DNA from: a virus
Taxonomy: Duplodnaviria > Heunggongvirae > Uroviricota > Caudoviricetes
DNA: 13,981 bases
IMG/VR virus record: IMGVR_UViG_2531839454_000017
Coordinates: 1-13,981 of that record
Reading direction: 5' to 3' (one strand)
The notes under the pieces are model-generated. The model was not told the DNA's origin. It worked only from the letters and a program-made list of their open reading frames with translations, and ran no database searches. Numbering within the stretch: position 1 is the first letter of the stretch; every line of letters begins with the position of its first letter. Positions 1 through 12,079 of the stretch are shown piece after piece. The position numbers and the translations under genes are program-made.

Positions 1-212
<212 letters not shown>

Positions 213-372
213 CTCGGTGGCCAGTTTTTGTTGACCACTTCACTTCCTACCATCCAGCATTCTTTCCGGGCCCGGAGAATTGTGCCTGGTTTGAGCCCGG
301 TAATTGCGATAAGAACGCTTTCACAAACCCATTCATTGGGAGCCAGTTGAATCACATTGCCCATGCATTACC

Positions 373-519
373 TCACACAACACTCAGCCCACGGCAGTGG
401 CACCACACTTCAAACATTCGTTTCACAATTTCACGGCTGTAGAAACCGTCAACATCTCGCGTCAGGTCATAGCGATTGCCGTAACGCTGGCGTACCCATA
501 GCTCAAACGCTTTATTCAT
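373..519 (-). CDS. Hypothetical small protein, 48 aa (MNKAFELWVRQRYGNRYDLTRDVDGFYSREIVKRMFEVWCHCRGLSVV); below the ORF-track length cutoff
   Basis: Hand translation of the minus strand: ATG at 519-517 preceded by AAGGAA with 7-nt spacing, 3 nt after the stop of the upstream gene; stop TGA at 375-373. No family recognised. Confidence 0.3.
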   Translation of the reverse strand: MNKAFELWVRQRYGNRYDLTRDVDGFYSREIVKRMFEVWCHCRGLSVV

Positions 520-522
520 TCT

Positions 523-765
523 TTATTTCCTTTTCATGACCCGTAATTTTTTCAGATGAGTTTCCTGTTCTGTTTCTGCCAGAATTTGTCGGTATTCCTG
601 GTGATCGAGCCGTTCAAACAGTTCATTAAAATCGTTTATTTTTACCGACTGTGTTCGCCCATCCATTCTTCTGTACAACACAGTGTTATTTATGCAGCGA
701 ATAATTTTTACCGGGTAACCGGCACTGTCGGTATACAGTTGTCCCTGATTAATCAAAGCGAACAT
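523..765 (-). CDS. Hypothetical protein, 80 aa (start chosen inside ORF 523..888)
   Basis: Internal ATG at 765 is preceded by AGGAG with 5-nt spacing; the longer track ORF would overlap the upstream gene. Basic C-terminus (LKKLRVMKRK). No recognisable domain. Confidence 0.5.
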   Translation of the reverse strand: MFALINQGQLYTDSAGYPVKIIRCINNTVLYRRMDGRTQSVKINDFNELFERLDHQEYRQILAETEQETHLKKLRVMKRK

Positions 766-796
766 TTTTTCTCCTGCTCTCTGAATAGTGAGAACT

Positions 797-1168
797 TCAG
801 AGCCGTATGTTTGTAGCGGGTTCAATACTGATAATTTCTGCTGAGATAAGCATCCCGGCAAGCCAGAGTTCTCCGGACAGGTCTTCATCCTGACATATCA
901 GTTCGCCAATATTAATGGTGGCCATGATATCTGTTCCCCCTGTGCGCTCATCCTCGACTTCTTCATAAGGCAGTGTTGCGTACAGGCTTTCAATAGCGCA
1001 ACTGATAACATCCAGTCCGGTCAGATTGCCGCCGACAGTAACTTCGAATGTTTCGCGGTATTCCCATAACCCGAAAGTTAATCGAACGGTTTGTTTTGCC
1101 ATACGTCCGCATGACGTCAGATTCGGGTCATAGTTCATTATTTGCGGTTGGGCATTATGGGTGTTCAT
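797..1168 (-). CDS. Hypothetical acidic protein, 123 aa (start chosen inside ORF 797..1240)
   Basis: ATG at 1168 preceded by AAGGGA with 7-nt spacing; the track start at 1240 would overlap the SPFH gene end. C-terminal half is strongly acidic (about 13 D/E versus 2 basic residues in the last ~57 aa). Confidence 0.5.
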   Translation of the reverse strand: MNTHNAQPQIMNYDPNLTSCGRMAKQTVRLTFGLWEYRETFEVTVGGNLTGLDVISCAIESLYATLPYEEVEDERTGGTDIMATINIGELICQDEDLSGELWLAGMLISAEIISIEPATNIRL

Positions 1169-1208
1169 CTGCTTTTCCCTTAGCCCGGCGGTCTGCCGGG
1201 CGTATAAG

Positions 1209-2036
1209 TTATTTAACCTGGATAAATGGTGTACTGGCACCGCTGGTCATGTATTGCGGCAGTGTGCCGTTCCATTTATTAATGGCTTCCAGTTCCATAA
1301 CACCAGGGTTCTGGCGCAGAGCTTCACCGCGTAAACGAATAGCATCGGCTTCGGCCTGGGCTTTTGTGCGAATGGCGTCAGCCTGTCCGGCAGCTTCCGC
1401 GCGCAACATGTTGGCTTCCGCTTCGCGCTGTTTTACTTCCTGTTCGCGTTGCAGGGTCTTCTGGTTTGCCGTGACTTTGGCATTAATGCTGTCGATAACG
1501 GTTGGCGGGTACTCCGGCTTACCCACATATGAGAGACTCATTACCTGAATACCGATGGGCGTCATTTCTGCCTGAATGTCTTTAAGGGCTGCATCCAGCA
1601 GCTCAGACTTGCCGCCGTCGATAAATTTGTCAGTGGTCATTTTGCTGGCCAGTCGGTTGAGTGCGTCGGCGATCTTCTGGCGCAGGTCAGTGTCGGTAAT
1701 GTCATCCACGCCTTTGCGGTAGGTCTGAAACACCGTGGTAACTTTGGATGGATCAACTTTGTAGGCCACGCCAATGTGATAGCCGATGGTTGTACCGTCA
1801 CTCATCTGGAAACTGAACGGTTCATCGTAGGTCTTCATTTGCTTGAAGGTGGGGAAGATGTAAACTTCAGTATTCCAGCCAGTCCAGTAGCGACCAACAC
1901 CGACCACCTCACCGACGCCTTTGTCGTCGCCCAGTTTATTTACCTTGATGCCAACATTACCTGGTTCAACGCGATCGCAACCGACAAGGCCAATAGTCGG
2001 CAGAACAATGGCTAAAGCAAAAATAATTTTTTTCAT
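1209..2036 (-). CDS. SPFH/band-7 (prohibitin/HflC/flotillin-like) lipoprotein, 275 aa
   Basis: N-terminal signal peptide with lipobox LVGC (MKKIIFALAIVLPTIGLVGC), then a band-7-like core and a long Ala/Glu/Gln-rich coiled-coil-like tail (QREQEVKQREAEANMLRAEAAGQADAIRTKAQAEADAIRLRGEA). ATG at 2036 preceded by AAGGA; start overlaps the stop of the upstream small gene (ATGA at 2033-2036). Confidence 0.85.
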   Translation of the reverse strand: MKKIIFALAIVLPTIGLVGCDRVEPGNVGIKVNKLGDDKGVGEVVGVGRYWTGWNTEVYIFPTFKQMKTYDEPFSFQMSDGTTIGYHIGVAYKVDPSKVTTVFQTYRKGVDDITDTDLRQKIADALNRLASKMTTDKFIDGGKSELLDAALKDIQAEMTPIGIQVMSLSYVGKPEYPPTVIDSINAKVTANQKTLQREQEVKQREAEANMLRAEAAGQADAIRTKAQAEADAIRLRGEALRQNPGVMELEAINKWNGTLPQYMTSGASTPFIQVK

Positions 2037-2221
2037 CTTTTATCCTTAGTGAAAGAAAGACCCTTGTAAATGGCATAAATGCAGGGCGGGGTCAGAAACG
2101 CCAGTGCAAAGCCAGAAATAACTGCTATCGTATCCTTCATGGATATAAGGAACGGAACAAGTAATCCGTAAATACATGCGATAATTGCCAGTAAAATTAC
2201 TATTGTGAAATACAGTCTCAT
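2033..2221 (-). CDS. Small integral membrane protein, 62 aa, translationally coupled to the SPFH gene
   Basis: Two hydrophobic segments (LYFTIVILLAIIACIYGLLVPFLI and AVISGFALAFLTPPCIYAIY); stop overlaps the SPFH start codon (ATGA). A small membrane partner upstream of an SPFH protein recalls NfeD-SPFH pairs, although this protein is much shorter than typical NfeD. Confidence 0.6.
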   Translation of the reverse strand: MRLYFTIVILLAIIACIYGLLVPFLISMKDTIAVISGFALAFLTPPCIYAIYKGLSFTKDKR

Positions 2222-2244
2222 TGGTCTGTGGTATCCCGATATTT

Positions 2245-2352
2245 TTAACCGACTGACAGCACAATAAAGAGAATAATGATTTCAGTTAGTGTCAGTACTG
2301 TGGCAAGGATTAAAATCAGTTTTACTCTGTTTAATTCACGGTTGCTTTTCAT
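2245..2352 (-). CDS. Possible tiny membrane peptide, 35 aa (MKSNRELNRVKLILILATVLTLTEIIILFIVLSVG); not in ORF track
   Basis: Hand translation: charged N-terminus followed by one hydrophobic helix; lies 23 nt upstream of the 62-aa membrane gene on the same strand. No convincing Shine-Dalgarno, hence low confidence. Confidence 0.25.
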   Translation of the reverse strand: MKSNRELNRVKLILILATVLTLTEIIILFIVLSVG

Positions 2353-2364
2353 ACAAACGGTTAG

Positions 2365-2391
2365 TAAAAAACTGGAAGAATTATTTTCTTC
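2365..2391 (-). terminator. Weak intrinsic terminator-like hairpin after the 193-aa gene
   Basis: On the minus strand, GAAGAA/TTCTTC stem (AT-rich, 6 bp) followed by CAGTTTTTT; located just past the stop at 2399. Confidence 0.3.
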
Positions 2392-2398
2392 TTAATAT

Positions 2399-2980
2399 TT
2401 AATGTGTCACTGGCGCTTCTGGCATACCATGAGTATTCAGGTCGTTAATCATTTCATCCAGAAGGAGTTCAAGCCCTTCGCGCCCCATAGCAGAAACAAT
2501 GAAACCATTATCAGGATCTGCGATGAGCATATTTTGATAGAGAAACAGAACTCGCCCCATGCCTTCAGCTTCGCCATATTTTTCAATAAATCCCCATTCG
2601 ACATGGTTTTGCAGGGCAATGCGAAGTGGTCCTGGGTATATACTCATGCAACCATGCTTCCCCTTATAAATAACAGCGCGATCTGTAGTTCCGTTATCGT
2701 TAGGGATATCAATGGTGCCGTTCTTATACTCCTCTTCATTAATAAATACCGTTACATACAGCCAGCGCCACTGTGCAACCTTCATATCGATAGAACAGTT
2801 TTCTAAAATCCCGGACTCATCGGCTTCTGCCAGGCACTGGAGAATGCTTAAACCGCGTGAATTTGGATAATCGTATTCACCATCATTAAGCCGCTGTACG
2901 GCCTCAATATAATCAATGGTTGTATTACCAATTTTTATGCCATGTGGCGTTACTTCTGGTCGGAACTCTGAATGATTCAT
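2399..2980 (-). CDS. Hypothetical protein, 193 aa, no recognisable domain (start chosen inside ORF 2399..3055)
   Basis: ATG at 2980 preceded by AAGGAG with 8-nt spacing; this start overlaps the stop of the upstream 62-aa gene (ATGA at 2977-2980). No nucleotide-binding or catalytic motif recognised by eye. Confidence 0.7.
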   Translation of the reverse strand: MNHSEFRPEVTPHGIKIGNTTIDYIEAVQRLNDGEYDYPNSRGLSILQCLAEADESGILENCSIDMKVAQWRWLYVTVFINEEEYKNGTIDIPNDNGTTDRAVIYKGKHGCMSIYPGPLRIALQNHVEWGFIEKYGEAEGMGRVLFLYQNMLIADPDNGFIVSAMGREGLELLLDEMINDLNTHGMPEAPVTH

Positions 2981-3165
2981 AATGTTTGCTCCTTTGCTGG
3001 TGGAATAATCGTGTAGCCAGCTCTTTTTGCCATCCACAGAAATGTATCCATGCAACCAACGAATTCATTATCCAACAGATGTTTTGAGTAAATTACTTCA
3101 CCATTTTCAATGGTTAGCAACACTCTTACTTTTTTATGTGTTATGTTTTGGTGTTTTTCTTCCAT
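2977..3165 (-). CDS. Hypothetical small protein, 62 aa (MEEKHQNITHKKVRVLLTIENGEVIY...), translationally coupled to the 193-aa gene
   Basis: Preferred start ATG at 3165 is preceded by GGGAG with about 8-nt spacing; the ORF-track start at 3180 lacks a Shine-Dalgarno. Stop overlaps the downstream start. Confidence 0.55.
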   Translation of the reverse strand: MEEKHQNITHKKVRVLLTIENGEVIYSKHLLDNEFVGCMDTFLWMAKRAGYTIIPPAKEQTL

Positions 3166-3175
3166 TGATTTATCT

Positions 3176-3194
3176 CCCATATGCTTTGCGCAAA
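3176..3194. repeat. Copy 1 of a repeated 19-bp motif with palindromic core TTTGCGCAAA
   Basis: CCCATATGCTTTGCGCAAA; matches 13922-13940 at 18 of 19 positions; overlaps the start region of the 62-aa gene. Confidence 0.45.
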
Positions 3195-3361
3195 TACAGG
3201 CTGGCTATATGAAGATAAGAATCTCCATGTTGTGCAATGAGGCAGGCAGTTTTATACGATGCCTTATGTTTCAGGAAAGTCATAACATAATCTCCTGCGA
3301 ATAAAGGTTGCAACGATCCCCGGCGATAAAACCGTAATAAACATTCAGGGAATATTTATTG

Positions 3362-3727
3362 TTATTGCGCTAATTCTTTTTCGGCAGCAGATTTTGCATA
3401 TTCACATGCAAAATTCAGAATTTCGCTGCCAAGTGTTTTTGTTTCGTGATTACTGGACATATGTAATACCTGTGTTGCATGCAATAAATGATAAACATTT
3501 ACCGCAAATGAGTCCGGCTCCAGACAAATGCCTTCATAATCATCTTGTTGTGAGGTTGTTTCTGTCATTGCTCCTGAAGTGCATGCGAGCCTGTTTTTGA
3601 CAATTCTCTTTCCTCTAATCACTATATCGGCAACATCTATTGCCTTTACAACCTCCGGGAGAAGTTCCGGGTTTGTATAATCAAAGTCATCAACATGGAG
3701 AACAGTTATGTTTTCGAACTTTTTCAT
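3362..3727 (-). CDS. Hypothetical protein, 121 aa
   Basis: Intact ORF with GAGGAA upstream of the ATG at 3727; same orientation as the cargo block. No family recognised. Confidence 0.6.
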   Translation of the reverse strand: MKKFENITVLHVDDFDYTNPELLPEVVKAIDVADIVIRGKRIVKNRLACTSGAMTETTSQQDDYEGICLEPDSFAVNVYHLLHATQVLHMSSNHETKTLGSEILNFACEYAKSAAEKELAQ

Positions 3728-3855
3728 GGCTTCCTCAGCTGACTTATATGTTCTGCTATATAGCGAGTCTCAGAAGGGTTTTCATATTGAGACTGTTTCC
3801 GCAATGATTGATAAAAATGTTCGCATGTACCTTGAGGGGCGAAGCGGCGATTATG

Positions 3856-4404
3856 TCACCATTGGTATTGGTTCTTCCGTAGAAGAGCTTCGCGAGATAA
3901 GGAGCAAACTTGTTGAGATGCGTCATGGTGTTGCTGCTCCTCACTTTTTGGTTGCTCCGGAGGAGTAACCTCGCCAGTTAACAGCCACATCGGATCGCAG
4001 CCAAGAATATTTGCCAGTGGGATAAGCATACTGATGGTTGGTTCATACTCTCCGCTCTCCCACTGAATGATGATTTCTTCATCGAGATCGAGCAGCCTGG
4101 CGAGTTCGGCGGTTGTTAAGCCGCAGGCTTCGCGTTGGGGGCGAAGGTTAACCAGCCAGCTTTTAGGGAAGGATTGTTTTTGTTGTGCAGGAGAAGCCGC
4201 AGATAGAGCATATTCATGGATAAATTCCATTACCTCAATGCCCAGTTCCTTTGAGCGAGCACAATCCAGAAGATGGAATGTGCGTACAGCACTTAGCAAA
4301 TTTGCAATATTTAATGCAAAGGAATCAAGTTCTAAGCCTTCAAGCGTAACACAGCCGCAGTTGATAAAATTAGTTGTTTCTGGAGTTGCTTTTAGTGTCT
4401 TCAT
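3856..4404 (-). CDS. Atypical HTH (XRE/Cro-C1-type) protein, 182 aa: unknown ~90-aa N-terminal domain followed by the HTH
   Basis: Residues about 95-150 (GLTTAELARLLDLDEEIIIQWESGEYEPTISMLIPLANILGCDPMWLLTG) form a classic XRE helix-turn-helix; the N-terminal ~90 aa and the Gln/Glu-rich tail are unassigned. Own sigma70-like promoter upstream. Confidence 0.75.
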   Translation of the reverse strand: MKTLKATPETTNFINCGCVTLEGLELDSFALNIANLLSAVRTFHLLDCARSKELGIEVMEFIHEYALSAASPAQQKQSFPKSWLVNLRPQREACGLTTAELARLLDLDEEIIIQWESGEYEPTISMLIPLANILGCDPMWLLTGEVTPPEQPKSEEQQHHDASQQVCSLSREALLRKNQYQW

Positions 4405-4457
4405 ATACCCACCAACAATTTTAAATTGAATTTAATCAAGTTATAATTGATGTTGCG

Positions 4458-4486
4458 ATATTATGCTTTGAGAAATAGGCTGTCAA
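4458..4486 (-). promoter_or_regulatory. Sigma70-like promoter for the HTH gene (minus strand): -35 TTGACA, 17-bp spacer, -10 TAATAT
   Basis: Reverse complement of 4481-4486 is TTGACA and of 4458-4463 is TAATAT, with a 17-nt spacer; sits between the cI terminator and the start at 4404. Confidence 0.5.
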
Positions 4487-4512
4487 GAAAAAATTGATAT
4501 CGTGTGTTTTAG

Positions 4513-4537
4513 GCAGAAAAAAACGGGCAAAGCCCGT
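4513..4537 (-). terminator. Rho-independent terminator downstream of the cI-like gene
   Basis: Minus-strand sense reads ACGGGC-UUU-GCCCGU followed by UUUUUUU; begins 13 nt after the repressor stop codon. Confidence 0.7.
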
Positions 4538-4549
4538 TAAAATCAAAGA

Positions 4550-5239
4550 CTAACCAAATCTGTTTATATTGAATGGTACTGATGAGATCACTTTAGACTG
4601 GATATAAAGCAGAGCTAACCCCTCTTTTTCGATGCTCCATGGTTGATAATTGGGGTTATCAGATAACACCATGATTTTGCTTCCAATTTTTTGAAGTCTT
4701 TTCACGTAGCATTCTCCATCAAAACAAAATGCATAAATGCCATCGCCATCAAAATAAGTTACTGTCTTATCAAGAAAAAGAAGGTCGCCAGGTGAGATTG
4801 TGGGAGCCATACTGTCTCCTCTGGCGTTACCTATTTCTATATTTTTGAATGCCCGATTTCCAACAAGGCGTCGGGCATATTCAGGATCAAGTTCTATTGA
4901 GCGCACTACATCTATCAAGTCACCACGGACATGAGTTCCATCACCGCAACTAAACTCAACATCAAGGACATTAAACACGACGCTATCTGTTCTTGTCTGG
5001 TGTTTCTCTTGCGAGGAAAAGGTTGGTGAGGAGTCTTCACCTAAGAACCAGGATTGTGGATAACCGCTAATCTCGGATAAATGCGCGAGCTTATCACTCC
5101 GTGGAAATGTTTTTCCTGTTGTCCAGTACTGCACTGATTGCGCACTCACACCTAACTTGCGGGCCAGTTGAGCCTGAGTCCATCCTTTTGCTTTCAGCAT
5201 CGCGGCTATTCGATTTTCCGTGTTTTTGACGTTCTTCAT
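4550..5239 (-). CDS. Prophage CI-like repressor: N-terminal XRE HTH plus C-terminal S24 (LexA-like) autopeptidase, about 229 aa
   Basis: HTH (WTQAQLARKLGVSAQSVQYW) and S24 motifs (GDSMAPTISPGDLLFLD with the catalytic Ser; YVKRL with the Lys). The track start is TTG at 5245; the ATG at 5239 is preferred. Divergent from a Cro-like gene. Confidence 0.9.
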   Translation of the reverse strand: MKNVKNTENRIAAMLKAKGWTQAQLARKLGVSAQSVQYWTTGKTFPRSDKLAHLSEISGYPQSWFLGEDSSPTFSSQEKHQTRTDSVVFNVLDVEFSCGDGTHVRGDLIDVVRSIELDPEYARRLVGNRAFKNIEIGNARGDSMAPTISPGDLLFLDKTVTYFDGDGIYAFCFDGECYVKRLQKIGSKIMVLSDNPNYQPWSIEKEGLALLYIQSKVISSVPFNINRFG

Positions 5240-5372
5240 GACCAAATCCTGTGGGTTTCTTTACAAGGATAAATCTTTACTTGATTTTAGTGTATTCGAT
5301 CCTTTTGCAACTTGCATGTTAATTTAAACTTGATGTATTCTTGATTTATAAAGTTAATGTTGGTGCTTTGTT
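5240..5372. promoter_or_regulatory. Divergent cI/cro promoter-operator region
   Basis: AT-rich 133-bp spacer between divergent repressor genes; three direct copies of a CTTGAT(T/G)T motif (about 5280, 5329, 5341); palindrome TGCAAcTTGCA at 5306-5316; a possible rightward promoter (TTAAAC, 17 bp, TATAAA at 5324-5352). Confidence 0.55.
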
Positions 5373-5645
5373 ATGAAAGGAAATGATTACGACAAACTTC
5401 GTGCATTAATTGCGCAAAATGCCATAGCGCGAAATCTTGGTGTGACGCCGCAAGCGGTGAATCAGTGGTTTTCAAAAAACACAATTCCTGCTCGTTTCGT
5501 TTTACGCGTATGTGAAGTAGTTGCATGGAAGGTCACGCCACATGGCTTAAGGCCAGATCTTTATCCTCACCCTGAAGATGGAATTCCTGATTCGTTACGC
5601 AAAATTTCAAATCCAAGCTTAGCGCATACAGAGGACGAGAAGTGA
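5373..5645 (+). CDS. Cro-like HTH regulator (YdaS/DicC-like), 90 aa
   Basis: HTH signature IARNLGVTPQAVNQWFSKNTIP; divergent arrangement with the CI-like repressor, as in lambdoid immunity regions. Confidence 0.75.
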   Translation: MKGNDYDKLRALIAQNAIARNLGVTPQAVNQWFSKNTIPARFVLRVCEVVAWKVTPHGLRPDLYPHPEDGIPDSLRKISNPSLAHTEDEK

Positions 5646-5685
5646 TGGTGGTGATATGAGCGAAAAAATAACTATTAAATACGAT

Positions 5686-5708
5686 GGGGCAACCATTTCG
5701 ATTGCCCC
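5686..5708 (-). terminator. Terminator-like hairpin after the reverse-oriented moron
   Basis: GGGGCAA/TTGCCCC stem (7 bp, 9-nt loop) 8 nt downstream of the stop at 5716 on the minus strand, followed by a U-rich stretch. Confidence 0.35.
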
Positions 5709-5715
5709 AATCACA

Positions 5716-6009
5716 TTAGCGTTCGCTGAGAAGTTGTTGGTAAGCCTTAAAGGATGCGAACTGCATTCTACCTTCGGCATTGATTCCAATGCCTTCGCTT
5801 GTACACCAGGTGATGAACTCGGCTGTATCCGCTTCAACTTTAATAACTCGTTGCCCGCTTCTTTCGACACGCTTAATCAATTTTTCAGCGTCGTGTTTCC
5901 ACTCGGTGTAACTGTCGGAGAGCACATCAGCATCAGTAAAAATATTTTTGAGCTCATGATACTGAATCGCATCGCGAAACCAGAATAAACCAACGGCCTG
6001 AACTTTCAT
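5716..6009 (-). CDS. Hypothetical protein, 97 aa; reverse-oriented moron inside the rightward early operon
   Basis: ATG at 6009 preceded by AAGGAGG with 6-nt spacing; balanced protein-like composition. The overlapping plus-strand ORF 5656..5988 is judged spurious. Confidence 0.65.
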   Translation of the reverse strand: MKVQAVGLFWFRDAIQYHELKNIFTDADVLSDSYTEWKHDAEKLIKRVERSGQRVIKVEADTAEFITWCTSEGIGINAEGRMQFASFKAYQQLLSER

Positions 6010-6122
6010 GTCGAACCTCCTTTGGTTCTTTTGTTTATAGGGATCAAAAGGATAACTGAAGGAAGGTTCGGCACCAATAAGTACGAATGTGCGGAATCTT
6101 AAAAGAATTTATCCGTAAGGAG

Positions 6123-6836
6123 ATGGCAGTGAACACCGCAATTTTTAACGACAAAGCATCCATGACCAGCGTTGAGATCGCAGAGCTGGTGGGTAGTCAG
6201 CACTCAGATGTTAAACGTAGTATCGAACGCCTGGTTGCTAAAAACATCATCCGGAAACCGCCAATGGCTGTTTCCGAGAAAATCAATAACTTAGGTTTTA
6301 AAGTTCAATATGAGCATTACCTGTTTGAAGGAGAACAAGGTAAGCGCGACAGCATCATTGTCGTCGCACAGCTCTGCCCTGAATTCACTGCTCGCCTGGT
6401 AGATCGCTGGCGTGAACTGGAAGAACAGATCCGTAAGCCAATGAGCGAAATTGAAATGGTTGCTGCGATGGCTCTTGAAGCCGTTCGTCAGCAGAAACGG
6501 ATCACTCAGGTGGAAGAAAAAGTCAGCCATGTTGCCGAAACAGTTGAGCAAATCAAAAGGGGTACCATTCGTGAGGGCTATGCCGGATATCGCCAACTGA
6601 AAGCGAAAACCGGTTTGTCAGATGATAAATGCCGCAATCTGGTGAACGCCTATCAAATTCCTACAGATACCCACGAGTTTATGACGCCGGACGGATTGTT
6701 ATCACGTCGCGCAATTGTTGCTGTGGAACCGTTTATGGCCGCTTTTTATCAGGTTATGGAGGAAGCAGAACCGCGAGGGACTCGCTGGTATCACCCGAAA
6801 ATGGGGTTATTTCAGGTTATTGGTTGGCAGCGGTGA
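6123..6836 (+). CDS. Rha/antirepressor-like phage regulatory protein (N-terminal Rha-like motif plus unassigned C-terminal domain)
   Basis: Motif MTSVEIAELVGSQHSDVKRSIERL resembles the Rha N-terminal domain. Start is ambiguous: track ATG 6087 (no SD), ATG 6123, or GTG 6129 (AAGGAG at 6117-6122, best spacing). Stop TGA at 6834-6836. Confidence 0.6.
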   Translation: MAVNTAIFNDKASMTSVEIAELVGSQHSDVKRSIERLVAKNIIRKPPMAVSEKINNLGFKVQYEHYLFEGEQGKRDSIIVVAQLCPEFTARLVDRWRELEEQIRKPMSEIEMVAAMALEAVRQQKRITQVEEKVSHVAETVEQIKRGTIREGYAGYRQLKAKTGLSDDKCRNLVNAYQIPTDTHEFMTPDGLLSRRAIVAVEPFMAAFYQVMEEAEPRGTRWYHPKMGLFQVIGWQR

Positions 6837-6860
6837 AAAAAAGCCGGGTAGTGACCCGGC
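6836..6860 (-). terminator. Orphan minus-strand intrinsic terminator
   Basis: GCCGGGT-AGTG-ACCCGGC hairpin (6843-6860) followed, in minus sense, by seven U (plus-strand A-run 6836-6842); no U-tract on the plus side. Confidence 0.5.
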
Positions 6861-7062
6861 TCGCTCAACGTTAGTAAAGGCAACCTCACAAAGAAGTAAG
6901 CCAGTAACATCCAAGAACATTTGCGTTAGTAAAAATACCAGTAAGCATATGAATGTTTCAAGCCTAAATATTGATTCTGCAATTTCGGGACGTTACACTG
7001 TCTCCGCACCTTATAAAGCGGGTGCCGGGATTGGAACCCCGGAATTGCTCGAGGCGATATAC

Positions 7063-7082
7063 GACGCGCTAGCGTCTTTTTT
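7063..7082 (+). terminator. Plus-strand terminator-like hairpin between the two Rha genes (tR-like)
   Basis: GACGC-GCTA-GCGTC stem-loop followed by TTTTTT (7077-7082). Confidence 0.4.
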
Positions 7083-7248
7083 ATCGTCCATGCTCGCGCA
7101 CGCCAGAATTATGGTGGGCTGGGCAGGGGAGCCGAAAGGCTCGCCGGTTTCCTTGAGCGCCGGTAGTTCCAACCCTGTTCAGTCCGCCACCAGCGAGCTT
7201 GGAACCTCCGGTGGTGGAAGTTTTTCACTGCTCAAGGAGGCTGCCATC

Positions 7249-7611
7249 ATGGCTACAGTCCCAACTTCCCCATACCTGAAAATCGAAGTCGTCAACGGCA
7301 AGGCCGTTATTTTCTCCCTGCATGTTGCCTGCCACTTTAAGCGCATGCACCAGAACATCGTCGACAAAATCGAGTATCTGAACTGCTCACGCGAGTTTTT
7401 TACCCGCAATTTCATACCGGGTACTTATCACATCTATGGTGACTCCCTGCGTGGTTATTACATCACCCTTGATGGCCTGATGATGCTTCAGCTTGGGTTA
7501 AGTCTGCGCACAATGCGGTACTACGAGAGCTGTATTGAAGCATTCCATGAGGCAGAAACTAACCTGAATCACACCGCTTTCCGCCGTAATCAATGGGAGG
7601 TGCGTCCATGA
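7249..7611 (+). CDS. Rha-family phage regulatory protein, 120 aa
   Basis: HFKRMHQNIVDKIEYL ... NFIPGTY ... YYITLDGLMMLQLG ... CIEAFHEAE matches the Rha N-terminal domain pattern. ATG at 7249 preceded by AAGGAGG with 8-nt spacing. The same frame stays open upstream to 6715 but without a credible start. Confidence 0.7.
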   Translation: MATVPTSPYLKIEVVNGKAVIFSLHVACHFKRMHQNIVDKIEYLNCSREFFTRNFIPGTYHIYGDSLRGYYITLDGLMMLQLGLSLRTMRYYESCIEAFHEAETNLNHTAFRRNQWEVRP

Positions 7612-7802
7612 TTAGTTACGAAATTATTATTTCCACAACTGAATACAGAAACGATGTATCAGTTCGCACGGATACGTCTGTCTGGCACCGCCGCTATAAA
7701 TCTAGGAAAACAGCGGAACGTAAAGCAGCGGAGATGTGTGAAACCATCGCAATGAAAGGCAGTCCGGTTAAATACATCACTACGGCGGAGGGGCGCCCAT
7801 GA
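7608..7802 (+). CDS. Hypothetical small phage protein, 64 aa
   Basis: ATG at 7608 overlaps the Rha stop (ATGA); GGGAGG lies 7 nt upstream. Confidence 0.6.
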   Translation: MISYEIIISTTEYRNDVSVRTDTSVWHRRYKSRKTAERKAAEMCETIAMKGSPVKYITTAEGRP

Positions 7803-8023
7803 TTCGTCGCGTTGTGAATTCTCTGTATCACCGATACAACCGTTGCCCCCGTGTGGGGCAGTGGTTTGCCACCAGCAACGGTCACGTTCTGCGGGTTTGC
7901 CTGGTCAGTACCGAAAGCCAGAAAGTTGTGTGTGAATTACTGGGGCGTAACTACACCATTAGCTATCCGTTGATGGCGTTTCAGTCCGGAAAAATGTTTA
8001 AACGCCTGGGAGGTGCCGTGTGA
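7799..8023 (+). CDS. Hypothetical small phage protein, 74 aa (Cys-containing)
   Basis: ATGA overlap with the upstream stop; GGAGGGG Shine-Dalgarno; stop overlaps the GTG start of the next gene. Confidence 0.6.
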   Translation: MIRRVVNSLYHRYNRCPRVGQWFATSNGHVLRVCLVSTESQKVVCELLGRNYTISYPLMAFQSGKMFKRLGGAV

Positions 8024-8976
8024 GTAGCAAAATTCTCGGTAACGTCTGGGATGCATGTGCCGCGTATGGAGTCAAAGGTGCAAAGCTGATGATCATGGCG
8101 CGTCTGGCTGATTATTCGAATGATGACGGGGTGTGTTATCCCGGTGTTGAAACAATATGCCGACAGCTTGGGTTGGGAGAAAGCACAGTAAGAACAGCAA
8201 TTTCAGAGCTGGAGGCTGATGGCTGGCTGACGCGTCAGTCACGCCGCAAAGGTAATCGTAATACGTCCAATCTTTATCATCTGAATGCTGATCGGCTTGA
8301 ACAGCTTGCCAGAACGGAGCGGGATAAGGTCGCAGAACTAAAACAGCAGCGCAGACTTTCAGTACTACGTGACCCGTCAAAATCTGAACCTTCAAAATCT
8401 GAACCTTCAAAATCTGAACCTTCAAAATCTGAACCGTCAGAATCTGAATGTTCAGGTGTGTTTGACCCTTCAGATTCTGGCAAAAAAACGGTTTTGACCC
8501 TTCAGAATCTGGCCCCAGATCCACAAGGTTTAAAACATGATCCGCAAGTAAATTCAAAACATGATCCGCAAGATATTGGCGCATCCGCTGACGCGTCTGC
8601 ACCAGCGCGCTCTGCCCGACAGGAATATTCACCGGAATTTGAACAGGCCTGGCAGGAATATCCCAAACGTGCTGGTGGTAATTCCAAGTCGGCAGCCTTC
8701 AAAGCCTGGAAAGCCCGTCTCAGGGAGGGAATAAAACCGGAGACCATGCTTGATGGTGTGAGACGTTATGCCGCTTGGGTACGTGCTACAGGAAATACCG
8801 GCACACAGTTCGTGAAGCAGGCTGCGACGTTCTTTGGACCCGATCGTCACTTCGAAGACTTCTGGCAACAGCCAGCCGCTCCCGGAGGGGGGCGACAGCG
8901 ACAGGTCGATGTCCTGGCTGGCCTGGGAGCCATGTCTGACAAATTCGGTAAATCCAGTGACAAATTGACATTCTGA
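8020..8976 (+). CDS. Phage replication initiator (lambda O-like replisome organiser): N-terminal winged-helix region, central repeats, C-terminal domain
   Basis: GTG start with GGGAGG 6 nt upstream, coupled to the preceding gene; PSKSE repeated four times plus further repeats in the middle; position immediately upstream of the DnaC- and DnaB-like genes. Confidence 0.75.
   Translation: MSSKILGNVWDACAAYGVKGAKLMIMARLADYSNDDGVCYPGVETICRQLGLGESTVRTAISELEADGWLTRQSRRKGNRNTSNLYHLNADRLEQLARTERDKVAELKQQRRLSVLRDPSKSEPSKSEPSKSEPSKSEPSESECSGVFDPSDSGKKTVLTLQNLAPDPQGLKHDPQVNSKHDPQDIGASADASAPARSARQEYSPEFEQAWQEYPKRAGGNSKSAAFKAWKARLREGIKPETMLDGVRRYAAWVRATGNTGTQFVKQAATFFGPDRHFEDFWQQPAAPGGGRQRQVDVLAGLGAMSDKFGKSSDKLTF
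8374..8512. repeat. Iteron-like array inside the O-like gene; candidate phage replication origin
   Basis: Five tandem 15-bp units (TCAAAATCTGAACCT and variants) at 8377-8451, then two copies of TTTGACCCTTCAGA(T/A)TCTGG flanking an A-run (8461-8512), and a further 17-bp direct repeat (AAAACATGATCCGCAAG, twice) near 8531-8580. Confidence 0.55.
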
Positions 8977-8986
8977 GGGGACAGCG

Positions 8987-9865
8987 ATGATGACGTTTAA
9001 CCTGCGTGAACAACAAAAAAGACTACAGGCGCGAATGGATGAGTTACGGGCAGAGATTGCATTTGCTCAGAAGGGCGAAAAGCCATGGCCTTATCGTTCC
9101 TGCCTGATGCGTGAAGGTCGCGGATATTGCGAAAAACACGGTAAATACCATACGCATATACTGGTGTGGAGCGATCGTAATGGCGAGGACAGAGAAAAAA
9201 TTTCATGCTGCCCTGACTGCTTGATCGCTGAGGCCAACGATTTGACCATGGAATTGTCGTCCATCAAGGCGGAAGAGCTGACTGATAACGCCGGAATTGC
9301 CCTGCGTTTTCGGGACTGCGAGTTTGATAATTATCTGGAGGTTAATCCTGACGCAGCCAGAAATCTTGCAGCCTGTCGCCGCTATGCGGAGAACTGGCCA
9401 GATATGCTGGAGAACGGCACCAGTCTTGTTATGACTGGCAGTTGCGGTACCGGGAAAAATCATCTGGCGGTATCAATGGCAAAACACATCATCCGTAACT
9501 ATCTGGCCAGTGTGGAGATCACCGACGTGATGCGTCTTACCCGTGCTGTGAAAAACTGCTGGCGGAATGACAGCGAAAAAACAGCGGATGAAGTTATTGA
9601 GCATTATGCGTCAATGGATTTGCTGATCATCGACGAAGTTGGTGTTCAGTTTGGCAGCGCGGCTGAAATGGCTATTTTGCAGGAAATTATCAATGCCCGG
9701 TACGAAAGTATTCTGCCCACCATCCTGATTAGCAACCTTTCACCGGATGAGTTGTGGGCGTTCATCAGCCCCCGCATTGCCGACAGGATCACAGACGGGG
9801 GGCGCAACTGGTTGTCGTTCAACTGGCCCAGCTATCGTTCTCGTATCAGAGGTGTGGCTGCATGA
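8987..9865 (+). CDS. DnaC-like helicase loader (AAA+ ATPase, IstB/DnaC family)
   Basis: Walker A GSCGTGKNHLA (compare E. coli DnaC GKPGTGKNHLA) and Walker B DLLIIDEVG; Cys/His-rich N-terminus; GAGGGG Shine-Dalgarno 6 nt upstream. Confidence 0.85.
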   Translation: MMTFNLREQQKRLQARMDELRAEIAFAQKGEKPWPYRSCLMREGRGYCEKHGKYHTHILVWSDRNGEDREKISCCPDCLIAEANDLTMELSSIKAEELTDNAGIALRFRDCEFDNYLEVNPDAARNLAACRRYAENWPDMLENGTSLVMTGSCGTGKNHLAVSMAKHIIRNYLASVEITDVMRLTRAVKNCWRNDSEKTADEVIEHYASMDLLIIDEVGVQFGSAAEMAILQEIINARYESILPTILISNLSPDELWAFISPRIADRITDGGRNWLSFNWPSYRSRIRGVAA

Positions 9866-11253
9866 CAATACCAGTCTGGCGTAACGATGACCTGGAAGGC
9901 GCTGTTATTGGCGCGTTCTTTCTGCGTGGGGCAGATCCTGAAGTGATGGATATTCTGGCCACATTGCCGGCGGACGTTTTTTCTGTACGAGCGTATCGGG
10001 ATATCTACACAGGTATCTGCAGACAGGCCCGTGTTTCAGGTGTGATTGACCCTGTGCTGCTGTGTAATGAGATGCCGGAACTTGCCCCGGTGATTACTGA
10101 TACCGGGCGCAAAACCTGGGTGAAGTCGTCACTGGAGCACTATGTTGCAGCGTTGCGGCGCAATGCCGCATTGCGCGATGCAGAAAAAACACTGAATGAG
10201 GCGTTACAGAAATTACGTGATGCGCATACCTGTGAAGCAGCTGAAGATGCTCTGAAGGATGCGCAGAACATGATGGCCTCATTGTCGACGGGGAAGGGTA
10301 TTATTCAGCCGGTACATATTGATGATGTGCTTCCGGAAGTGGTTGAACGTGTTGAATGCCGGAATCAGGGGCTGGAGAAATCCAGGACGCTGATGACCGG
10401 TATTGATGAACTGGACGCAAAAACAGGCGGTATGGAACCCGGCGACCTGGTATTTATTGCGGCTCGTCCTTCGATGGGTAAAACCGAACTGGCGCTGGAT
10501 ATCATCGACAAGGTGACTGAGCAGGGGCATGGTGTTCTTCTGTTCACAATGGAAATGGCGAACATCCAGATTGGTGAGCGCATGGTATCTGCGGCTGGAG
10601 GAATGCCGGTATCACGCCTGAAATCTGTCACTCACTTTGAAGACGAAGACTGGGCACGTTTCTCACAAGGAGTGGGGCGGATGACCGGGCGCAATATCTG
10701 GATGGTGGACCAGGCGAACCTGACCATTGACGAGATATACGCAACAACGAAACACCACCTGATTAAACATCCGGAAACGGCGCTGGTGGTGGTTGATTAT
10801 CTCGGGCTGATAAAAACCCGGAGCACGGGGCGTCATGACCTTGCCGTGGGTGAAATCTCAAAGGGGCTTAAAGGCCTGGCAAAATCCGGCGGATTACCGG
10901 TGGTTGCGTTGAGTCAGCTCTCCCGCGGTGTGGAGTCCAGGCCCAATAAACGCCCCATGAACTCAGACCTGAAAAATTCCGGAGAAATAGAGGCGGATGC
11001 AGACATCATTCTGATGCTTTACAGGGATGAAGTGTACAACCCGGATACGCAGGCCAGGGGCATCGCAGAAATCAATATCACGAAACAACGTAACGGTTCT
11101 CTGGGAACGATTTACCGGCGTTTTTATAACGGACATTTTCTGCCTGTGGATCAGGAAAGCGCACAGATTCTTTCTACCCCAATGCAGCAGCCCCAGCCGC
11201 GCAGATACAGCAACAAACGAACTGACAGCAGTAAGATGGAGCGTTTCTTTTGA
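9862..11253 (+). CDS. DnaB-family replicative helicase, about 463 aa
   Basis: ATG at 9862 overlaps the DnaC-like stop (ATGA). Motifs ARPSMGKTELALDI (Walker A), LVVVDYLGL, VVALSQLSR and KQRNGSLGT align with E. coli DnaB; the track ORF starts further upstream inside the preceding gene. Confidence 0.9.
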   Translation: MTIPVWRNDDLEGAVIGAFFLRGADPEVMDILATLPADVFSVRAYRDIYTGICRQARVSGVIDPVLLCNEMPELAPVITDTGRKTWVKSSLEHYVAALRRNAALRDAEKTLNEALQKLRDAHTCEAAEDALKDAQNMMASLSTGKGIIQPVHIDDVLPEVVERVECRNQGLEKSRTLMTGIDELDAKTGGMEPGDLVFIAARPSMGKTELALDIIDKVTEQGHGVLLFTMEMANIQIGERMVSAAGGMPVSRLKSVTHFEDEDWARFSQGVGRMTGRNIWMVDQANLTIDEIYATTKHHLIKHPETALVVVDYLGLIKTRSTGRHDLAVGEISKGLKGLAKSGGLPVVALSQLSRGVESRPNKRPMNSDLKNSGEIEADADIILMLYRDEVYNPDTQARGIAEINITKQRNGSLGTIYRRFYNGHFLPVDQESAQILSTPMQQPQPRRYSNKRTDSSKMERFF

Positions 11254-11507
11254 ACAACCAGACAACACCTTTTACCCCTGAACAATTACGTAAACAGGCA
11301 CAGGAAATGTTGCGACAGGCGGAACAACTGGAAAAAACAGGTGTAACAAAAGATGCCATTCGTCGGGATATGGTGCCAGCGCTCAGGGAACTGATGCAGG
11401 CGAAACACCGCGCACAAAAAGCGGTGGATGAGCTGGTGGATTGTGTGGCAGAGCTGGAAACCAGAGTTGGAAAGTTTGAAAAACTGGTGCAGGAGGTGCT
11501 GCGCTGA
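11250..11507 (+). CDS. Hypothetical small protein, 85 aa, probably coiled-coil
   Basis: TTG start at 11250 overlapping the helicase stop, with GGAG about 8 nt upstream; an internal ATG at 11307 is an alternative start. Stop overlaps the Q start. Confidence 0.5.
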
Positions 11508-11890: not shown

Positions 11891-11901
11891 TTAACGTTTG
11901 C

Positions 11902-11910
11902 TGGTAAAAT
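11902..11910 (+). promoter_or_regulatory. Candidate late promoter (pR'-like) extended -10 element: TGgTAAAAT
   Basis: TG at 11902-11903 and TAAAAT at 11905-11910, immediately downstream of Q and resembling the lambda pR' -10 region; no good -35. Confidence 0.3.
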
Positions 11911-11914
11911 TGAA

Positions 11915-12068: not shown

Positions 12069-12079
12069 AATAAAAAGAT

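Follow-up and report, generated by a model that had tools for sequence, protein, structure and literature searches.

A phage gene cassette encoding an SPFH-domain protein with a predicted lipid anchor and a 62-residue membrane partner

The gene pair and its products

The DNA analysed here, referred to below as the window, is a stretch of 13,981 nucleotides from a virus of the Caudoviricetes (IMG/VR record IMGVR_UViG_2531839454_000017, positions 1 to 13,981). On its minus strand, positions 1209-2036 encode a protein of 275 amino acids (aa), and positions 2033-2221, directly upstream, encode a protein of 62 aa. The 275-aa protein matched the Pfam Band_7 model (PF01145) with an E-value of 8.2e-31 and a score of 107.8 bits, the cutoff being 23.6, and was assigned to phrog_200 at E = 3e-114. 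The SPFH (Band 7) domain, delimited by the Pfam match and the secondary structure of the structural model, comprises residues 22-208 (positions 1413-1973, minus strand), and the match covers positions 2-176 of the 176 in PF01145. As this match lies above the curated threshold, the protein is a member of the SPFH/Band 7 superfamily. The sequence-only reading of this DNA, which had described the gene as a 275-aa band-7/SPFH lipoprotein with the lipobox LVGC and a long coiled-coil tail, was right on the reading frame, the domain, the lipobox, the long helix and the location on a prophage.

The N-terminus of the 275-aa protein (positions 1977-2036, minus strand) reads as a classical lipoprotein signal peptide, MKKIIFALAIVLPTIGLVGC|D. 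It has a positively charged n-region, a hydrophobic core and the lipobox L-V-G-C (MKK-IIFALAIVLPTIG-LVGC), in which Cys20 is encoded at 1977-1979; with this architecture the protein is a predicted lipoprotein with the features of an Lgt/LspA substrate. The lipobox Cys occupies the same alignment column in 83 of the 92 representatives at 50% identity on which conservation was counted, with 15-27 residues ahead. An Asp at position +2 is the inner-membrane retention signal of lipoproteins in E. coli and the Enterobacteriaceae. The window protein has Cys20-Asp21, and Asp at +2 is also found in the P88, P1-like and phiE125 copies. Family-wide, Asp is not conserved at this position, where T (19), D (11), S (11) and other residues occur, and the lipoprotein may therefore reside in different membranes in different hosts.

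The AlphaFold2 monomer model of the 275-aa protein (pLDDT 92.8) consists of the SPFH domain followed by a single helix of 65 residues, which DSSP placed at residues 178-242 (positions 1311-1505, minus strand). A helix of this kind forms the cage wall in solved SPFH complexes. The top Foldseek matches of the model were HflK/C (7vhq/7wi3), prohibitin (9o9z/8rrh), erlin, stomatin, flotillin and QmcA-YbbJ, with a probability of 1.00 for HflK/C, prohibitin, erlin, stomatin, flotillin and QmcA; the matches to HflK/C, prohibitin and erlin cover the long helix. By analogy with these solved homologues, the protein would form a ring or cage oligomer. Beyond the helix lies a family-specific C-terminal motif, K-W-N-G-T-L-P (positions 1257-1277, minus strand), which was recognized in two alignments with W255, G257 and P260 invariant and which is shared by PM0222 of Pasteurella multocida.

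The 62-aa protein has two hydrophobic segments and a K/R-rich C-terminus, with a predicted N-in/C-in topology. It matched phrog_1130 at E = 2.5e-23, and its homologues form 35 clusters with identities down to 63%. At E ≤ 0.01 it matched no Pfam or NCBIfam family. An NfeD identity was therefore rejected, and a protein of 62 aa is too short for an OB fold. The turn predicted to face the periplasm bears a conserved motif, YGLLVPFLISMKDTIAVISG, which in the family takes the form P-x-L-I-S-A-x-S-T..V..G; among 78 unique partners the P is present in 100%, the S in 97% and the G in 95%.

The TGA stop codon of the 62-aa gene overlaps the ATG of the SPFH gene in the junction ...AAAAGATGAAAAAA... (ATGA), and an AAGGA Shine-Dalgarno sequence lies 8-9 nt ahead of that ATG; the translational coupling to a 62-aa two-helix membrane protein that had been proposed earlier is thus borne out by the overlap. 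In P88, N4, phiE125 and loci L011-L018 the two genes likewise overlap or nearly abut. A hidden Markov model (HMM) of the partner found a match (E < 0.01) directly upstream of the SPFH gene, on the same strand, in 51 of 80 genome loci, and about nine further loci have a weaker upstream match with the same motif, which gives a range of 51-60 of 80. Elsewhere, the HMM matched only four of 11,822 ORFs, two of them partners that an IS1 remnant has displaced and the other two fusions. The homologues total roughly 3,000, and the loci examined were gathered by a scan built on 14 sequences and a single peptide pattern, so that the sample of taxa is biased, for example towards Dyella. No upstream partner was detected for the lipobox-bearing homologues of Bacteroidota and Kapaibacteria.

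Natural fusions of the partner with the SPFH protein were found in approximately 14-20 of 150 representative clusters. Their order is that of hairpin, K/R-rich linker, signal peptide with lipobox and SPFH domain, and this order fixes the topology. That the 62-aa protein is a family-specific partner of the SPFH lipoprotein is a new finding.

Boundaries, transcription and distribution of the cassette

The sequence-only reading had placed a possible 35-aa single-helix peptide just upstream of the pair. The ORF is present (2245-2352, minus strand) and is open, with no indels, in seven sequence variants. The differences between these variants were 11 nonsynonymous and 3 synonymous, with no third-position bias, and no Shine-Dalgarno sequence, no homologue beyond phiP27-like prophages and no SE11 RefSeq annotation was found for it. 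Being restricted to one lineage and devoid of a coding signature, this doubtful ORF was rejected as a third component and lies outside the conserved module; as a peptide gene it can still be called only possible.

The GCCCGGC/GCCGGGC hairpin described after the SPFH stop codon was found at 1184-1202 (minus strand; GCCCGGC-N5-GCCGGGC). It folds at -17.1 kcal/mol (z = -2.8) and marks the 3' boundary of the cassette. Lacking a U-tract, it does not qualify as a canonical sense-strand terminator. In cassettes from other phage families a hairpin of different sequence stands at the same position, and in N4, pMT1 and locus L017 this hairpin carries a T-run and is a true terminator. On the other side of the pair, a weak AT-rich hairpin followed by CAG and six T residues (2375-2391, minus strand) lies just past the stop codon of the upstream 218-aa gene. 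Its folding energy of -4.3 kcal/mol (z = -0.57) is no better than that of shuffled sequences and its stem is not conserved in the variant EcA34; it was rejected as an upstream terminator and is a leaky terminator at best.

A PL-like promoter (TTGACA-17-TAATAT, 10 of 12 positions matching) is located at 4458-4486 on the minus strand. The cI gene is followed directly by a terminator-like site (4538-4522) and then by this promoter (4486-4458), which is flanked by operator-like TCAAG-N6-7-TTGA palindromes at 4435-4451 and 4483-4498; palindromes of the same type recur in the cI-cro region. No other terminator-like site was found on the minus strand from the promoter to position 1209. The gene pair lies approximately 2.3 kb downstream of the promoter, beside DUF5406/DUF4222/xis and near xis/int, and its GC content differs from that of the neighbouring genes. 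The search for a promoter of its own gave none that was convincing, with eight promoter-like sites upstream and 10.3 expected in the region. Judging from these elements, the PL-like promoter probably drives a leftward early operon containing the pair, and the cassette of this prophage most probably shares the transcript of the repressor-controlled early-left operon. The comparison of this position with that of rexAB in lambda, made in the sequence-only reading, was given up, since cI is closed by a terminator and the pair belongs to a repressor-controlled, PL-type operon.

The cassette of Yersinia pestis pMT1 is an autonomous unit composed of a terminator, a promoter-like site, the genes and a second terminator, whereas in the window the downstream hairpin has no T-run and the upstream promoter-like sites are not above chance. 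Given the autonomy of the pMT1 cassette and the expression of the distant relative PM0222 in lysogens, the pair may also be expressed in the prophage state here.

Relatives of the SPFH protein were found by tblastn in 665 phage records, including those of the virulent phage N4 (62% identity) and the Vequintavirinae (49%), P2-like P88, P1-like phages and phiP27/Stx2 phages. They were also found in 633 plasmids of P1-like and SSU5/pMT1-like size, 607 of which are both non-mobilizable and in the size range of phage-plasmids, and in haloarchaeal viruses. With so many relatives, an SPFH scaffold in this place is not unusual, contrary to what had been supposed. The presence of the pair is patchy in unrelated backbones (lambda-like phiP27/Stx2, P2-like P88, P1-like/SSU5-like phage-plasmids and N4), as expected of a moron. 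It is frequent in the prophages of STEC, APEC and Shigella and in Y. pestis pMT1. Positions 1100-2450 of the window recur without any difference in E. coli SE11 and strain 504838.

Early operons house the pair in lambda-like, P2-like and P1-like phages: in P88 it is found between cox and the replication gene, and in one P1-like phage it stands between dmt and ban in the same orientation. In N4, U47, P88 and the window it occupies an early or a middle region, well away from the lysis genes. Among P1-like genomes, only variant ones carry the pair. The plp and upl genes of reference P1 were considered as its counterparts and rejected, as neither Plp (125 aa) nor Upl (63 aa) showed BLAST similarity to either protein.

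Chromosomal relatives with 35-48% identity occur at syntenic housekeeping loci, beside RNR in Dyella and beside Sdh/Frd in Leptospira. A phage-related role had been expected to fail if the homologues proved to be mainly chromosomal housekeeping genes with no prophage association; this holds for the distant homologues only, while the close ones are all borne by phages, prophages or phage-plasmids. The pair is a common cassette of phages, phage-plasmids and some bacterial chromosomes, for which an anti-phage role is one of several possibilities.

Possible roles of the cassette

The role of phage SPFH genes is called unclear in papers up to 2026 (PMC13239085). In the literature searched for tested functions of phage SPFH proteins, we found genome-note mentions only and no reported experiment on the lipoprotein subfamily, and SPFH goes unmentioned in the CRISPRi-ART phage fitness paper.

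The explanation that we favour, if tentatively, is that the cassette encodes a membrane scaffold of the SPFH type, split between two proteins and placed on the periplasmic side of the inner membrane, with a general role in conditioning that membrane. The 62-aa protein would sit in the inner membrane as a hairpin of two helices, its two ends cytoplasmic and its conserved P-x-L-I-S-x-x-D/S-T turn on the periplasmic side. The 275-aa protein would be exported, lipid-modified at Cys20 and, with Asp at +2, kept on the periplasmic face of the same membrane. If HflK/C, prohibitin, erlin and stomatin are a guide, the SPFH domains and the 65-residue helices would come together as a closed ring or cage enclosing a patch of membrane. 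Through the ATGA coupling the hairpin subunit would be made in matching amounts, and it would give the scaffold a transmembrane element, which the lipid-anchored subunit lacks. In the infected or induced cell the scaffold would condition or stabilise the cytoplasmic membrane, which would stay whole and energised up to programmed lysis, and a membrane less permissive to a second phage may be a side effect. On this reading the cassette would not be a dedicated immune system of the lysogen. The presence of the pair in virulent N4 and the Vequintavirinae, in early operons and at housekeeping loci, together with the lack of a PADLOC match, points to a general rather than a lysogen-specific role. 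It should be noted that membrane conditioning, as stated, is a broad category that shares ground with exclusion and is difficult to falsify.

A dedicated role in superinfection exclusion or abortive infection is possible, and we consider it unlikely. In that case the cage and the hairpin would block the DNA entry of other phages or collapse the membrane on infection, and so protect the lysogen or the infected cell. A membrane-located (as predicted), accessory and horizontally mobile cassette in many unrelated phage backbones, with a GC content unlike that of its neighbours and, in the pMT1 copy, a moron layout that includes a promoter-like site and terminators of its own, is what such a role would lead one to expect. 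The T4 imm/sp-type exclusion genes are expressed with early/middle timing, which the early/middle position of the pair in virulent phages fits, and the N4 gene adjoining the pair belongs to Pfam PF17420, 'superinfection exclusion gene product 17'. However, nothing specific was found for the defence module that the sequence-only reading had suggested. In PADLOC-DB v2 (E ≤ 0.01) no family matched either protein of the pair, the 35-aa ORF or any flanking gene apart from generic HTH matches of the 182-aa regulator, and there is no similarity to known exclusion lipoproteins. The pair lies within a repressed PL operon with no convincing promoter of its own in the window, its syntenic chromosomal copies among the housekeeping genes of Dyella and Leptospira are unlike defence islands, and the literature searched contains no report of a phenotype. 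A wider version, which we offer as a speculation with a low probability, is that a hitherto undescribed two-subunit SPFH cage, switched on early by virulent and temperate phages of many unrelated families, armours the cytoplasmic membrane, blocking a second genome and/or blunting depolarising abortive-infection effectors and premature holin firing; it would be a general phage counter-measure at membrane level, derived from a cellular housekeeping module.

The early-left operon of lambda carries the FtsH inhibitor cIII, and the location of the SPFH gene in such an operon raises the question of an HflK/C mimic. A phage cage of this kind would surround or compete for the periplasmic domain of FtsH and alter the stability of CII/CIII/Xis-type proteins or of LpxC and sigma-32, thereby biasing the lysis-lysogeny decision or host physiology. 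Of the named families and solved structures, HflC/HflK came out best in sequence comparison, and HflK/HflC also gave the best fold matches; the predicted topology, in which the SPFH domain is at the periplasmic side of the inner membrane, is the same. Yet the scores of the 275-aa protein in the equivalog test, 24.7 bits for TIGR01932 (hflC; cutoff 134.4) and 22.7 bits for TIGR01933 (hflK; cutoff 159.4), are far under the family cutoffs. It would form a single type of homo-oligomer, not a K/C pair, and its dedicated membrane partner suggests that the client is that partner and not FtsH. Furthermore, the pair is carried by strictly virulent phages, which make no lysogeny decision, and SPFH relatives occur in viruses of haloarchaea, which to our knowledge lack FtsH; we regard mimicry of HflK/C as quite improbable. 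Still less probable in our view is lysogenic conversion, by which a prophage-expressed pair would alter the capsule, serum resistance or vesicle content and hence fitness in the animal host. It draws on PM0222 (Pmorf0222) of a lambda-like prophage of P. multocida, the only relative with experimental data: the protein was detected in cultured lysogens and outer-membrane vesicles, and its deletion led to slower growth, reduced capsule gene expression and serum resistance, and attenuated virulence (PMC9872710). The shared C-terminal motif of PM0222 and the frequency of the cassette in STEC, APEC, Shigella and Y. pestis agree with such a role, but PM0222 belongs to a different branch, and in virulent phages and environmental bacteria the cassette cannot serve animal virulence. 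We give the least credence to a role in lysis timing, in which the cage would sequester or restrain the holin or other lysis proteins, or aid the export of lysis enzymes, and so tune the moment of lysis. The Kayvirus SPFH protein MbpS is encoded within a lysis module, between lysK and tgl, and its authors suggest that it may help in the Sec-dependent export of Tgl (PMC7150955); it is, however, only about 25% identical to the window protein and a putative member of the subfamily. N4, which carries the pair, shows lysis inhibition, but the available passages of the study on N4 lysis assign lysis and its regulation to gp60-63 and do not mention the SPFH pair (bioRxiv 10.1101/2025.11.12.688109). 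The location of the pair away from the lysis genes in the window, P88, N4 and U47, and the chromosomal homologues that have no lysis cassette at all, also speak against this role.

SPFH proteins such as stomatin, prohibitin, flotillin or HflK/C are universal membrane organisers, and their cage structures have been solved recently. The cassette is a compact and genetically tractable SPFH variant, in which a predicted lipid anchor replaces the transmembrane helix and a dedicated 62-aa partner is sometimes fused to the scaffold protein. Its carriers are model or medically relevant elements, namely N4, phiP27, Stx2 phages, P1-like and SSU5/pMT1-like phage-plasmids and possibly the Kayvirus therapy phages. 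Simple read-outs such as burst size, latent period and exclusion are available for what an SPFH cage does, and knowing why many phages carry the cassette would explain a large 'lipoprotein' PHROG and correct the widespread mis-annotation of the SPFH gene as a serine protease. If the cassette acts against other phages or host abortive-infection effectors, this would be a new membrane-level mechanism.

Comparison with known systems

Among the closest known systems is that of phiP27, which has the same pair in the same genome place; the SPFH protein of the window is 99.3% identical to phiP27 L05, and the DNA is 96.9% identical. No real difference was found between the window and phiP27 or the families phrog_200/phrog_1130. 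The phiP27 SPFH gene is named 'lipoprotein' or 'putative serine protease', which are generic or wrong names with no function recorded, and its 62-aa gene is not annotated. The PM0222 gene was recovered at 5956-6861 of L095 by the third of the primer-derived patterns, the other two having no match in viral contigs, and its product is 26% identical to the window protein. It shares the C-terminal KWNG[TV]LP...PF[IV]Q motif with the window protein, and a terminator hairpin lies 3' of the gene. It differs in having an N-terminal transmembrane anchor, no lipobox Cys and no upstream partner gene, and these differences place it in a different branch. MbpS of the Staphylococcus phage K group is another phage-encoded SPFH protein, located on the cytoplasmic membrane's outer face (PMC7150955), as is predicted for the window protein, with an identity of ~25% by tblastn; its gene, unlike that of the window, is part of the lysis module in a virulent Gram-positive phage.

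T5 Llp, phi80/N15 Cor, T4 Imm/Sp, P22 SieA and HK97 gp15 are, like the products of the window pair, phage-encoded envelope proteins. Llp and Cor are lipoproteins, and Imm is a small two-helix inner-membrane protein. Pfam and PADLOC searches detected no sequence or domain similarity between these exclusion proteins and the window pair, and we know of none among them that contains an SPFH scaffold or has conserved chromosomal housekeeping orthologues.

The SPFH-NfeD operons (QmcA-YbbJ, PDB 8z5g; YqiK-YqiJ; FloT-YuaF) resemble the cassette in layout, as a gene for a small membrane protein lies directly upstream and is co-translated, and the SPFH part of the window protein is structurally similar to their SPFH members. 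Gene fusions of NfeD with SPFH proteins are known, and fusions occur in the partner family of the window too, although the protein family is a different one. In place of an NfeD/OB-fold domain, the window partner, which has no Pfam match, is a two-helix hairpin with a motif of its own. QmcA, YqiK and FloT face the cytoplasm, whereas the window SPFH protein is predicted to be exported and lipidated.

The best fold match is HflK/HflC-FtsH (PDB 7vhp, 7vhq, 7wi3 and 9cz2; E about 1e-13), in which an SPFH domain is followed by a long helix as in the window protein; the sequence match is also the best obtained, but weak. The SPFH domain of HflK/C lies on the periplasmic face of the inner membrane, and the solved structures are cages around a membrane client. 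HflK/C is a hetero-oligomer of two paralogues anchored by N-terminal transmembrane helices, with FtsH as its client, whereas the window has one SPFH gene with a lipoprotein signal peptide and a neighbouring gene for a 62-aa hairpin protein. On our best reading, the cassette would encode a split SPFH cage that resembles HflK/C in fold and topology but has a lipid anchor and a non-NfeD partner.

The SPFH gene and its hairpin partner

The ORF listing placed three reading frames on the minus strand, as the sequence-only reading had described them: a 275-aa SPFH ORF (1209-2036), a 62-aa partner ORF (2033-2221) and a 35-aa ORF (2245-2352). The Pfam search identified the 275-aa protein as an unambiguous member of the SPFH/Band_7 family (PF01145, E=8e-31). 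Its N-terminal sequence MKKIIFALAIVLPTIGLVGC is a lipoprotein signal peptide of the classical type, and the next residue is Asp. An Asp at position +2 of a lipoprotein leads to retention in the inner membrane of E. coli, and this residue predicts the same location here; the +2 residue is variable across the SPFH lipoprotein family. The proposed translational coupling was seen at the gene junction AAAAGATGAAAAAA as an ATGA stop/start overlap, and the Shine-Dalgarno sequence of the SPFH gene sits within the 3' end of the upstream gene. At 1184-1202, immediately past the SPFH stop codon, the sequence can fold into a stable hairpin (-17.1 kcal/mol, z=-2.8) that lacks a U-tract.

The 35-aa ORF is open in seven variants, which differ by 11 nonsynonymous versus 3 synonymous changes. 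The variants showed neither third-position bias nor a ribosome-binding site, and the ORF has no homologue beyond the phiP27-like lineage and no RefSeq annotation. We regard this ORF as unproven.

In the confident AlphaFold2 model of the SPFH protein (pLDDT 92.8), the SPFH domain is followed by a single helix of 65 residues and a short C-terminal stretch. The structures that resemble it most all belong to cage-forming SPFH complexes, namely HflK/HflC with FtsH, prohibitin, erlin, stomatin, flotillin and QmcA-YbbJ, from all of which the protein is remote in sequence. Of 92 representatives, 83 have the lipobox Cys, and W255, G257 and P260, within the C-terminal KWNGTLP motif, are invariant.

The 62-aa protein combines two hydrophobic helices with a basic C-terminus. 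The suggested NfeD check gave no such domain, nor any Pfam or NCBIfam family. We tested an HMM made from enterobacterial and phage partners on 80 genome loci (11,822 ORFs). At 51 of the 80 loci it matched the ORF that directly precedes the SPFH gene in the same orientation (E<0.01), and about nine additional loci matched less strongly but share the motif. Elsewhere among the 11,822 ORFs there were only four matches, two being partners displaced by an IS1 remnant (Shigella, E. coli) and two in-frame fusions. Over 78 distinct partners the inter-helix turn reads Y-G-x-x-G-P-x-L-I-S-A-x-S-T-x-A-V-x-x-G, with Pro conserved in 100%, Ser in 97% and Gly in 95%.

Natural fusions make up approximately 14-20 of 150 representatives (50% identity) and follow the order hairpin, Lys/Arg-rich linker, signal peptide with lipobox, SPFH. 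These fusions show that the hairpin and SPFH proteins are likely to act together. Combined with the positive-inside rule, their architecture shows that the hairpin ends should be cytoplasmic, the conserved turn periplasmic and the SPFH domain outside the cytoplasm. As homologues from Bacteroidota and Kapaibacteria keep the lipobox without a detectable partner, the pairing is not universal.

Three variant arrangements were observed. In L009 and L010 (loci of Shigella flexneri and an E. coli strain, ~7233-8000), an IS1-like remnant of ~770 nt lies exactly between the two genes, altering the partner C-terminus and breaking the translational coupling. One representative homologue, P0133 (344 aa), has the partner-like hairpin at its C-terminal rather than N-terminal end (residues 289-334); either the fusion order differs in this protein or its ORF reads through into a partner gene that comes next. 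At the Bacteroidota/Cytophagales loci L079-L088, which have no hairpin partner, a different common ORF of ~100 aa with one hydrophobic segment and the ending ...LRI occupies the region ~100-400 nt ahead of the SPFH gene and is possibly an alternative partner.

Genomic setting and transcription

The window is a portion of a phiP27-like lambdoid E. coli prophage. Segment 1100-2450 matches yecE-site prophages of SE11 and further E. coli strains at 100% identity, phage phiP27 at 96.9% and Stx2a/Stx2d phages at 93.6%. The cI-type repressor (4550-5245; S24 peptidase and HTH) is directly followed by a terminator-like hairpin with a T-run (4538-4522) and a PL-like promoter, TTGACA-17-TAATAT (4486-4458; 10/12 sigma-70 match). 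Operator-like palindromes TCAAG-N6-7-TTGA, candidate OL and OR sites, lie on both sides of this promoter (4435-4498) and in the cI-cro intergenic region (5269-5336). Terminator, promoter and flanking palindromes would together form the expected OL/PL arrangement. The pair follows ~2.3 kb downstream within the leftward early operon, after an HTH regulator and three unknown genes and ahead of DUF5406, DUF4222 and xis, in this order. On the operon's strand no additional terminator-like sites were found, and the 177-nt spacer upstream of the pair contained no promoter match above chance. The evidence favours early-operon expression of the pair as the probable mode in the window.

Other backbones carry the pair at other positions. 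P2-like phage P88 has it in an early operon, with cox on one side and a replication gene on the other, and a P1-like phage has it between dmt and ban, in the orientation of ban. In Y. pestis pMT1 (locus L016, 7711-8867) it is a free-standing unit of terminator (strong, 9-bp stem), promoter-like site (TTGAAA-17-TATTAT, 10/12), partner, SPFH and terminator. This is the layout of a textbook moron and would allow expression in the plasmid-prophage state. A GC-rich hairpin, differing in sequence, directly follows the SPFH stop in every backbone examined, with a T-run in N4, pMT1 and one further locus, and the GC content of the SPFH gene in the window is 0.51 versus 0.35-0.47 in its neighbours. From the varied positions, the pMT1 unit, the recurrent hairpin and the GC contrast we conclude that the pair is a mobile cassette whose transcriptional wiring is set by the landing site.

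Several features outside the pair were also recorded. Within the left end (1-364), the C-terminal portion of an IS transposase (27-212, plus strand; rve_2/rve_3) truncates the excisionase gene (209-364, minus strand), which matches positions 1-39 of the 70 in the DUF1233 model. Given this truncation and SE11 prophage identity that begins only at 240, this copy may be unable to excise. Region 4147-5612, which spans cI, cro and a portion of the HTH gene, finds no nucleotide counterpart in the SE11 prophage, which is elsewhere 93-98% identical, as would be typical of a mosaic swap of the immunity module. Rfam matches to isrK (7006-7082, plus strand, 63 bits) and C4 antisense RNA (7107-7194, plus strand, 84 bits) form a P1/P7 immI-type RNA control element (7006-7194) upstream of ash/antirepressor-like ORFs; by these matches, a second, RNA-based immunity layer seems to be present. 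Inside an HTH_36 replication-initiator-like ORF (8020-8976), the SE11 copy of which is annotated as a pseudogene, a 15-nt unit repeated 4.8 times (96% matches; 8377-8448) encodes SEPSK repeats and could represent origin iterons within an initiator gene, in the fashion of lambda O. A full-length OmpC-type porin gene (12080-13177, minus strand; Porin_1, E=3e-155) lies directly downstream of the Q antiterminator gene (11507-11890) in opposite orientation; such prophage-borne cargo could change phage receptor availability.

Distribution of the cassette

The 275-aa and 62-aa proteins belong to phrog_200 ('lipoprotein') and phrog_1130 ('membrane protein'), respectively. The earlier view of an SPFH scaffold as something unusual for a phage proved wrong: SPFH relatives turned up by tblastn in 665 phage records (over >=80% of the length in 609), the segment is carried by 633 plasmids, and an exhaustive profile-free search gave 3,012 representative clusters at E<=1e-3 (226 at E<=1e-30). 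The segment also occurs in 534 of 5,426 complete E. coli genomes. Most of the plasmids (607/633) are non-mobilizable, and those listed fall into two size ranges, 87-96 kb and 100-117 kb, which match P1-like and SSU5/pMT1/pHCM2-like phage-plasmids. The lipobox was verified, together with the small hairpin gene ahead of SPFH, in N4 (species Enquatrovirus N4; SPFH protein 62% identical), the Vequintavirinae phage SSE121, the Burkholderia phage phiE125, P88 and the P1-like phage; Pseudomonas U47 has a lipobox and a small membrane protein upstream. Matches at ~25% identity (Kayvirus, Enterococcus, haloarchaeal viruses, Lak phages) are putative subfamily members, verification being limited to the closer phages. 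Many homologue records (phiP27 AJ298298, Stx2 phages, N4-like OLB145, Kosakonia) bear the name '(putative) serine protease', which looks like a propagated annotation error, since no protease domain is detectable in the SPFH lipoprotein (Pfam yields Band_7 alone).

Cellular copies of the pair, at 35-48% identity, were found in many Dyella, other Rhodanobacteraceae and Leptospira, a taxon sample biased by the single peptide pattern used for the scan. The Dyella and Leptospira flanks are conserved between species. By functions recognised from their sequences, the Dyella flanks encode ribonucleotide reductase, FtsX-type permeases and two peptidases, one BlaR1-like and one of family S9; those of Leptospira encode subunits of succinate dehydrogenase/fumarate reductase. 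The anticipated association with prophages held for the close homologues, all of them on phages, prophages or phage-plasmids, but not for these distant copies, whose sites appear to be ordinary chromosomal neighbourhoods, neither prophage nor defence island.

Possible functions and tested relatives

The cassette is very widespread in phages; the literature search found no functional study of the SPFH lipoprotein subfamily, and a 2026 phage paper still describes the gene's presence in phages as unexplained (PMC13239085). The gene itself is annotated as phiP27 L05 and, in RefSeq, as 'SPFH domain-containing protein', and phage SPFH genes have been remarked on in many genome papers. We did not find described the dedicated hairpin partner, the invariant motif, the fusions or, as a trait of the whole family, the periplasmic topology with its lipid anchor.

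The molecular reading of the pair is well supported: an SPFH scaffold outside the cytoplasm, split between a hairpin subunit and a lipid-anchored SPFH subunit that would be produced in matched amounts. That this scaffold generally conditions or stabilises the cytoplasmic membrane during phage development is, taken as a whole, a tentative proposal with somewhat less than even chances. We favour it because it fits the virulent phages, the early operons in three temperate backbones and the housekeeping chromosomal copies. Exclusion or abortive infection, put forward by the sequence-only reading from a rexAB-like position, is unlikely; the cI-PL interval holds no rexAB-like gene, the pair lies well inside the early-left operon, and the analysis turned up nothing that points directly to defence. 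Modulation of FtsH would agree with the HflK/HflC matches, but HflK is remote in sequence (PDB match E=1e-3) and the HflC/HflK family scores fall far under the cutoff; we consider it improbable.

The two remaining readings touch on studied relatives. A role in lysis timing is the least probable of all. The Kayvirus SPFH protein MbpS, which speaks for it, lies within the lysis module and was proposed to aid Tgl export (PMC7150955). Lysogenic conversion, which ranks just before it and is likewise quite improbable, is the reading closest to the one experimentally tested relative, the Pasteurella multocida prophage protein PM0222. This protein is present in cultured lysogens and vesicles, and its deletion lowered capsule expression and serum resistance and attenuated virulence (PMC9872710). 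The gene was recovered by means of its published primers. Unlike the 275-aa protein, PM0222 has a transmembrane anchor and neither a lipobox nor a partner, whereas the C-terminal motif is common to the two proteins, which are 26% identical.
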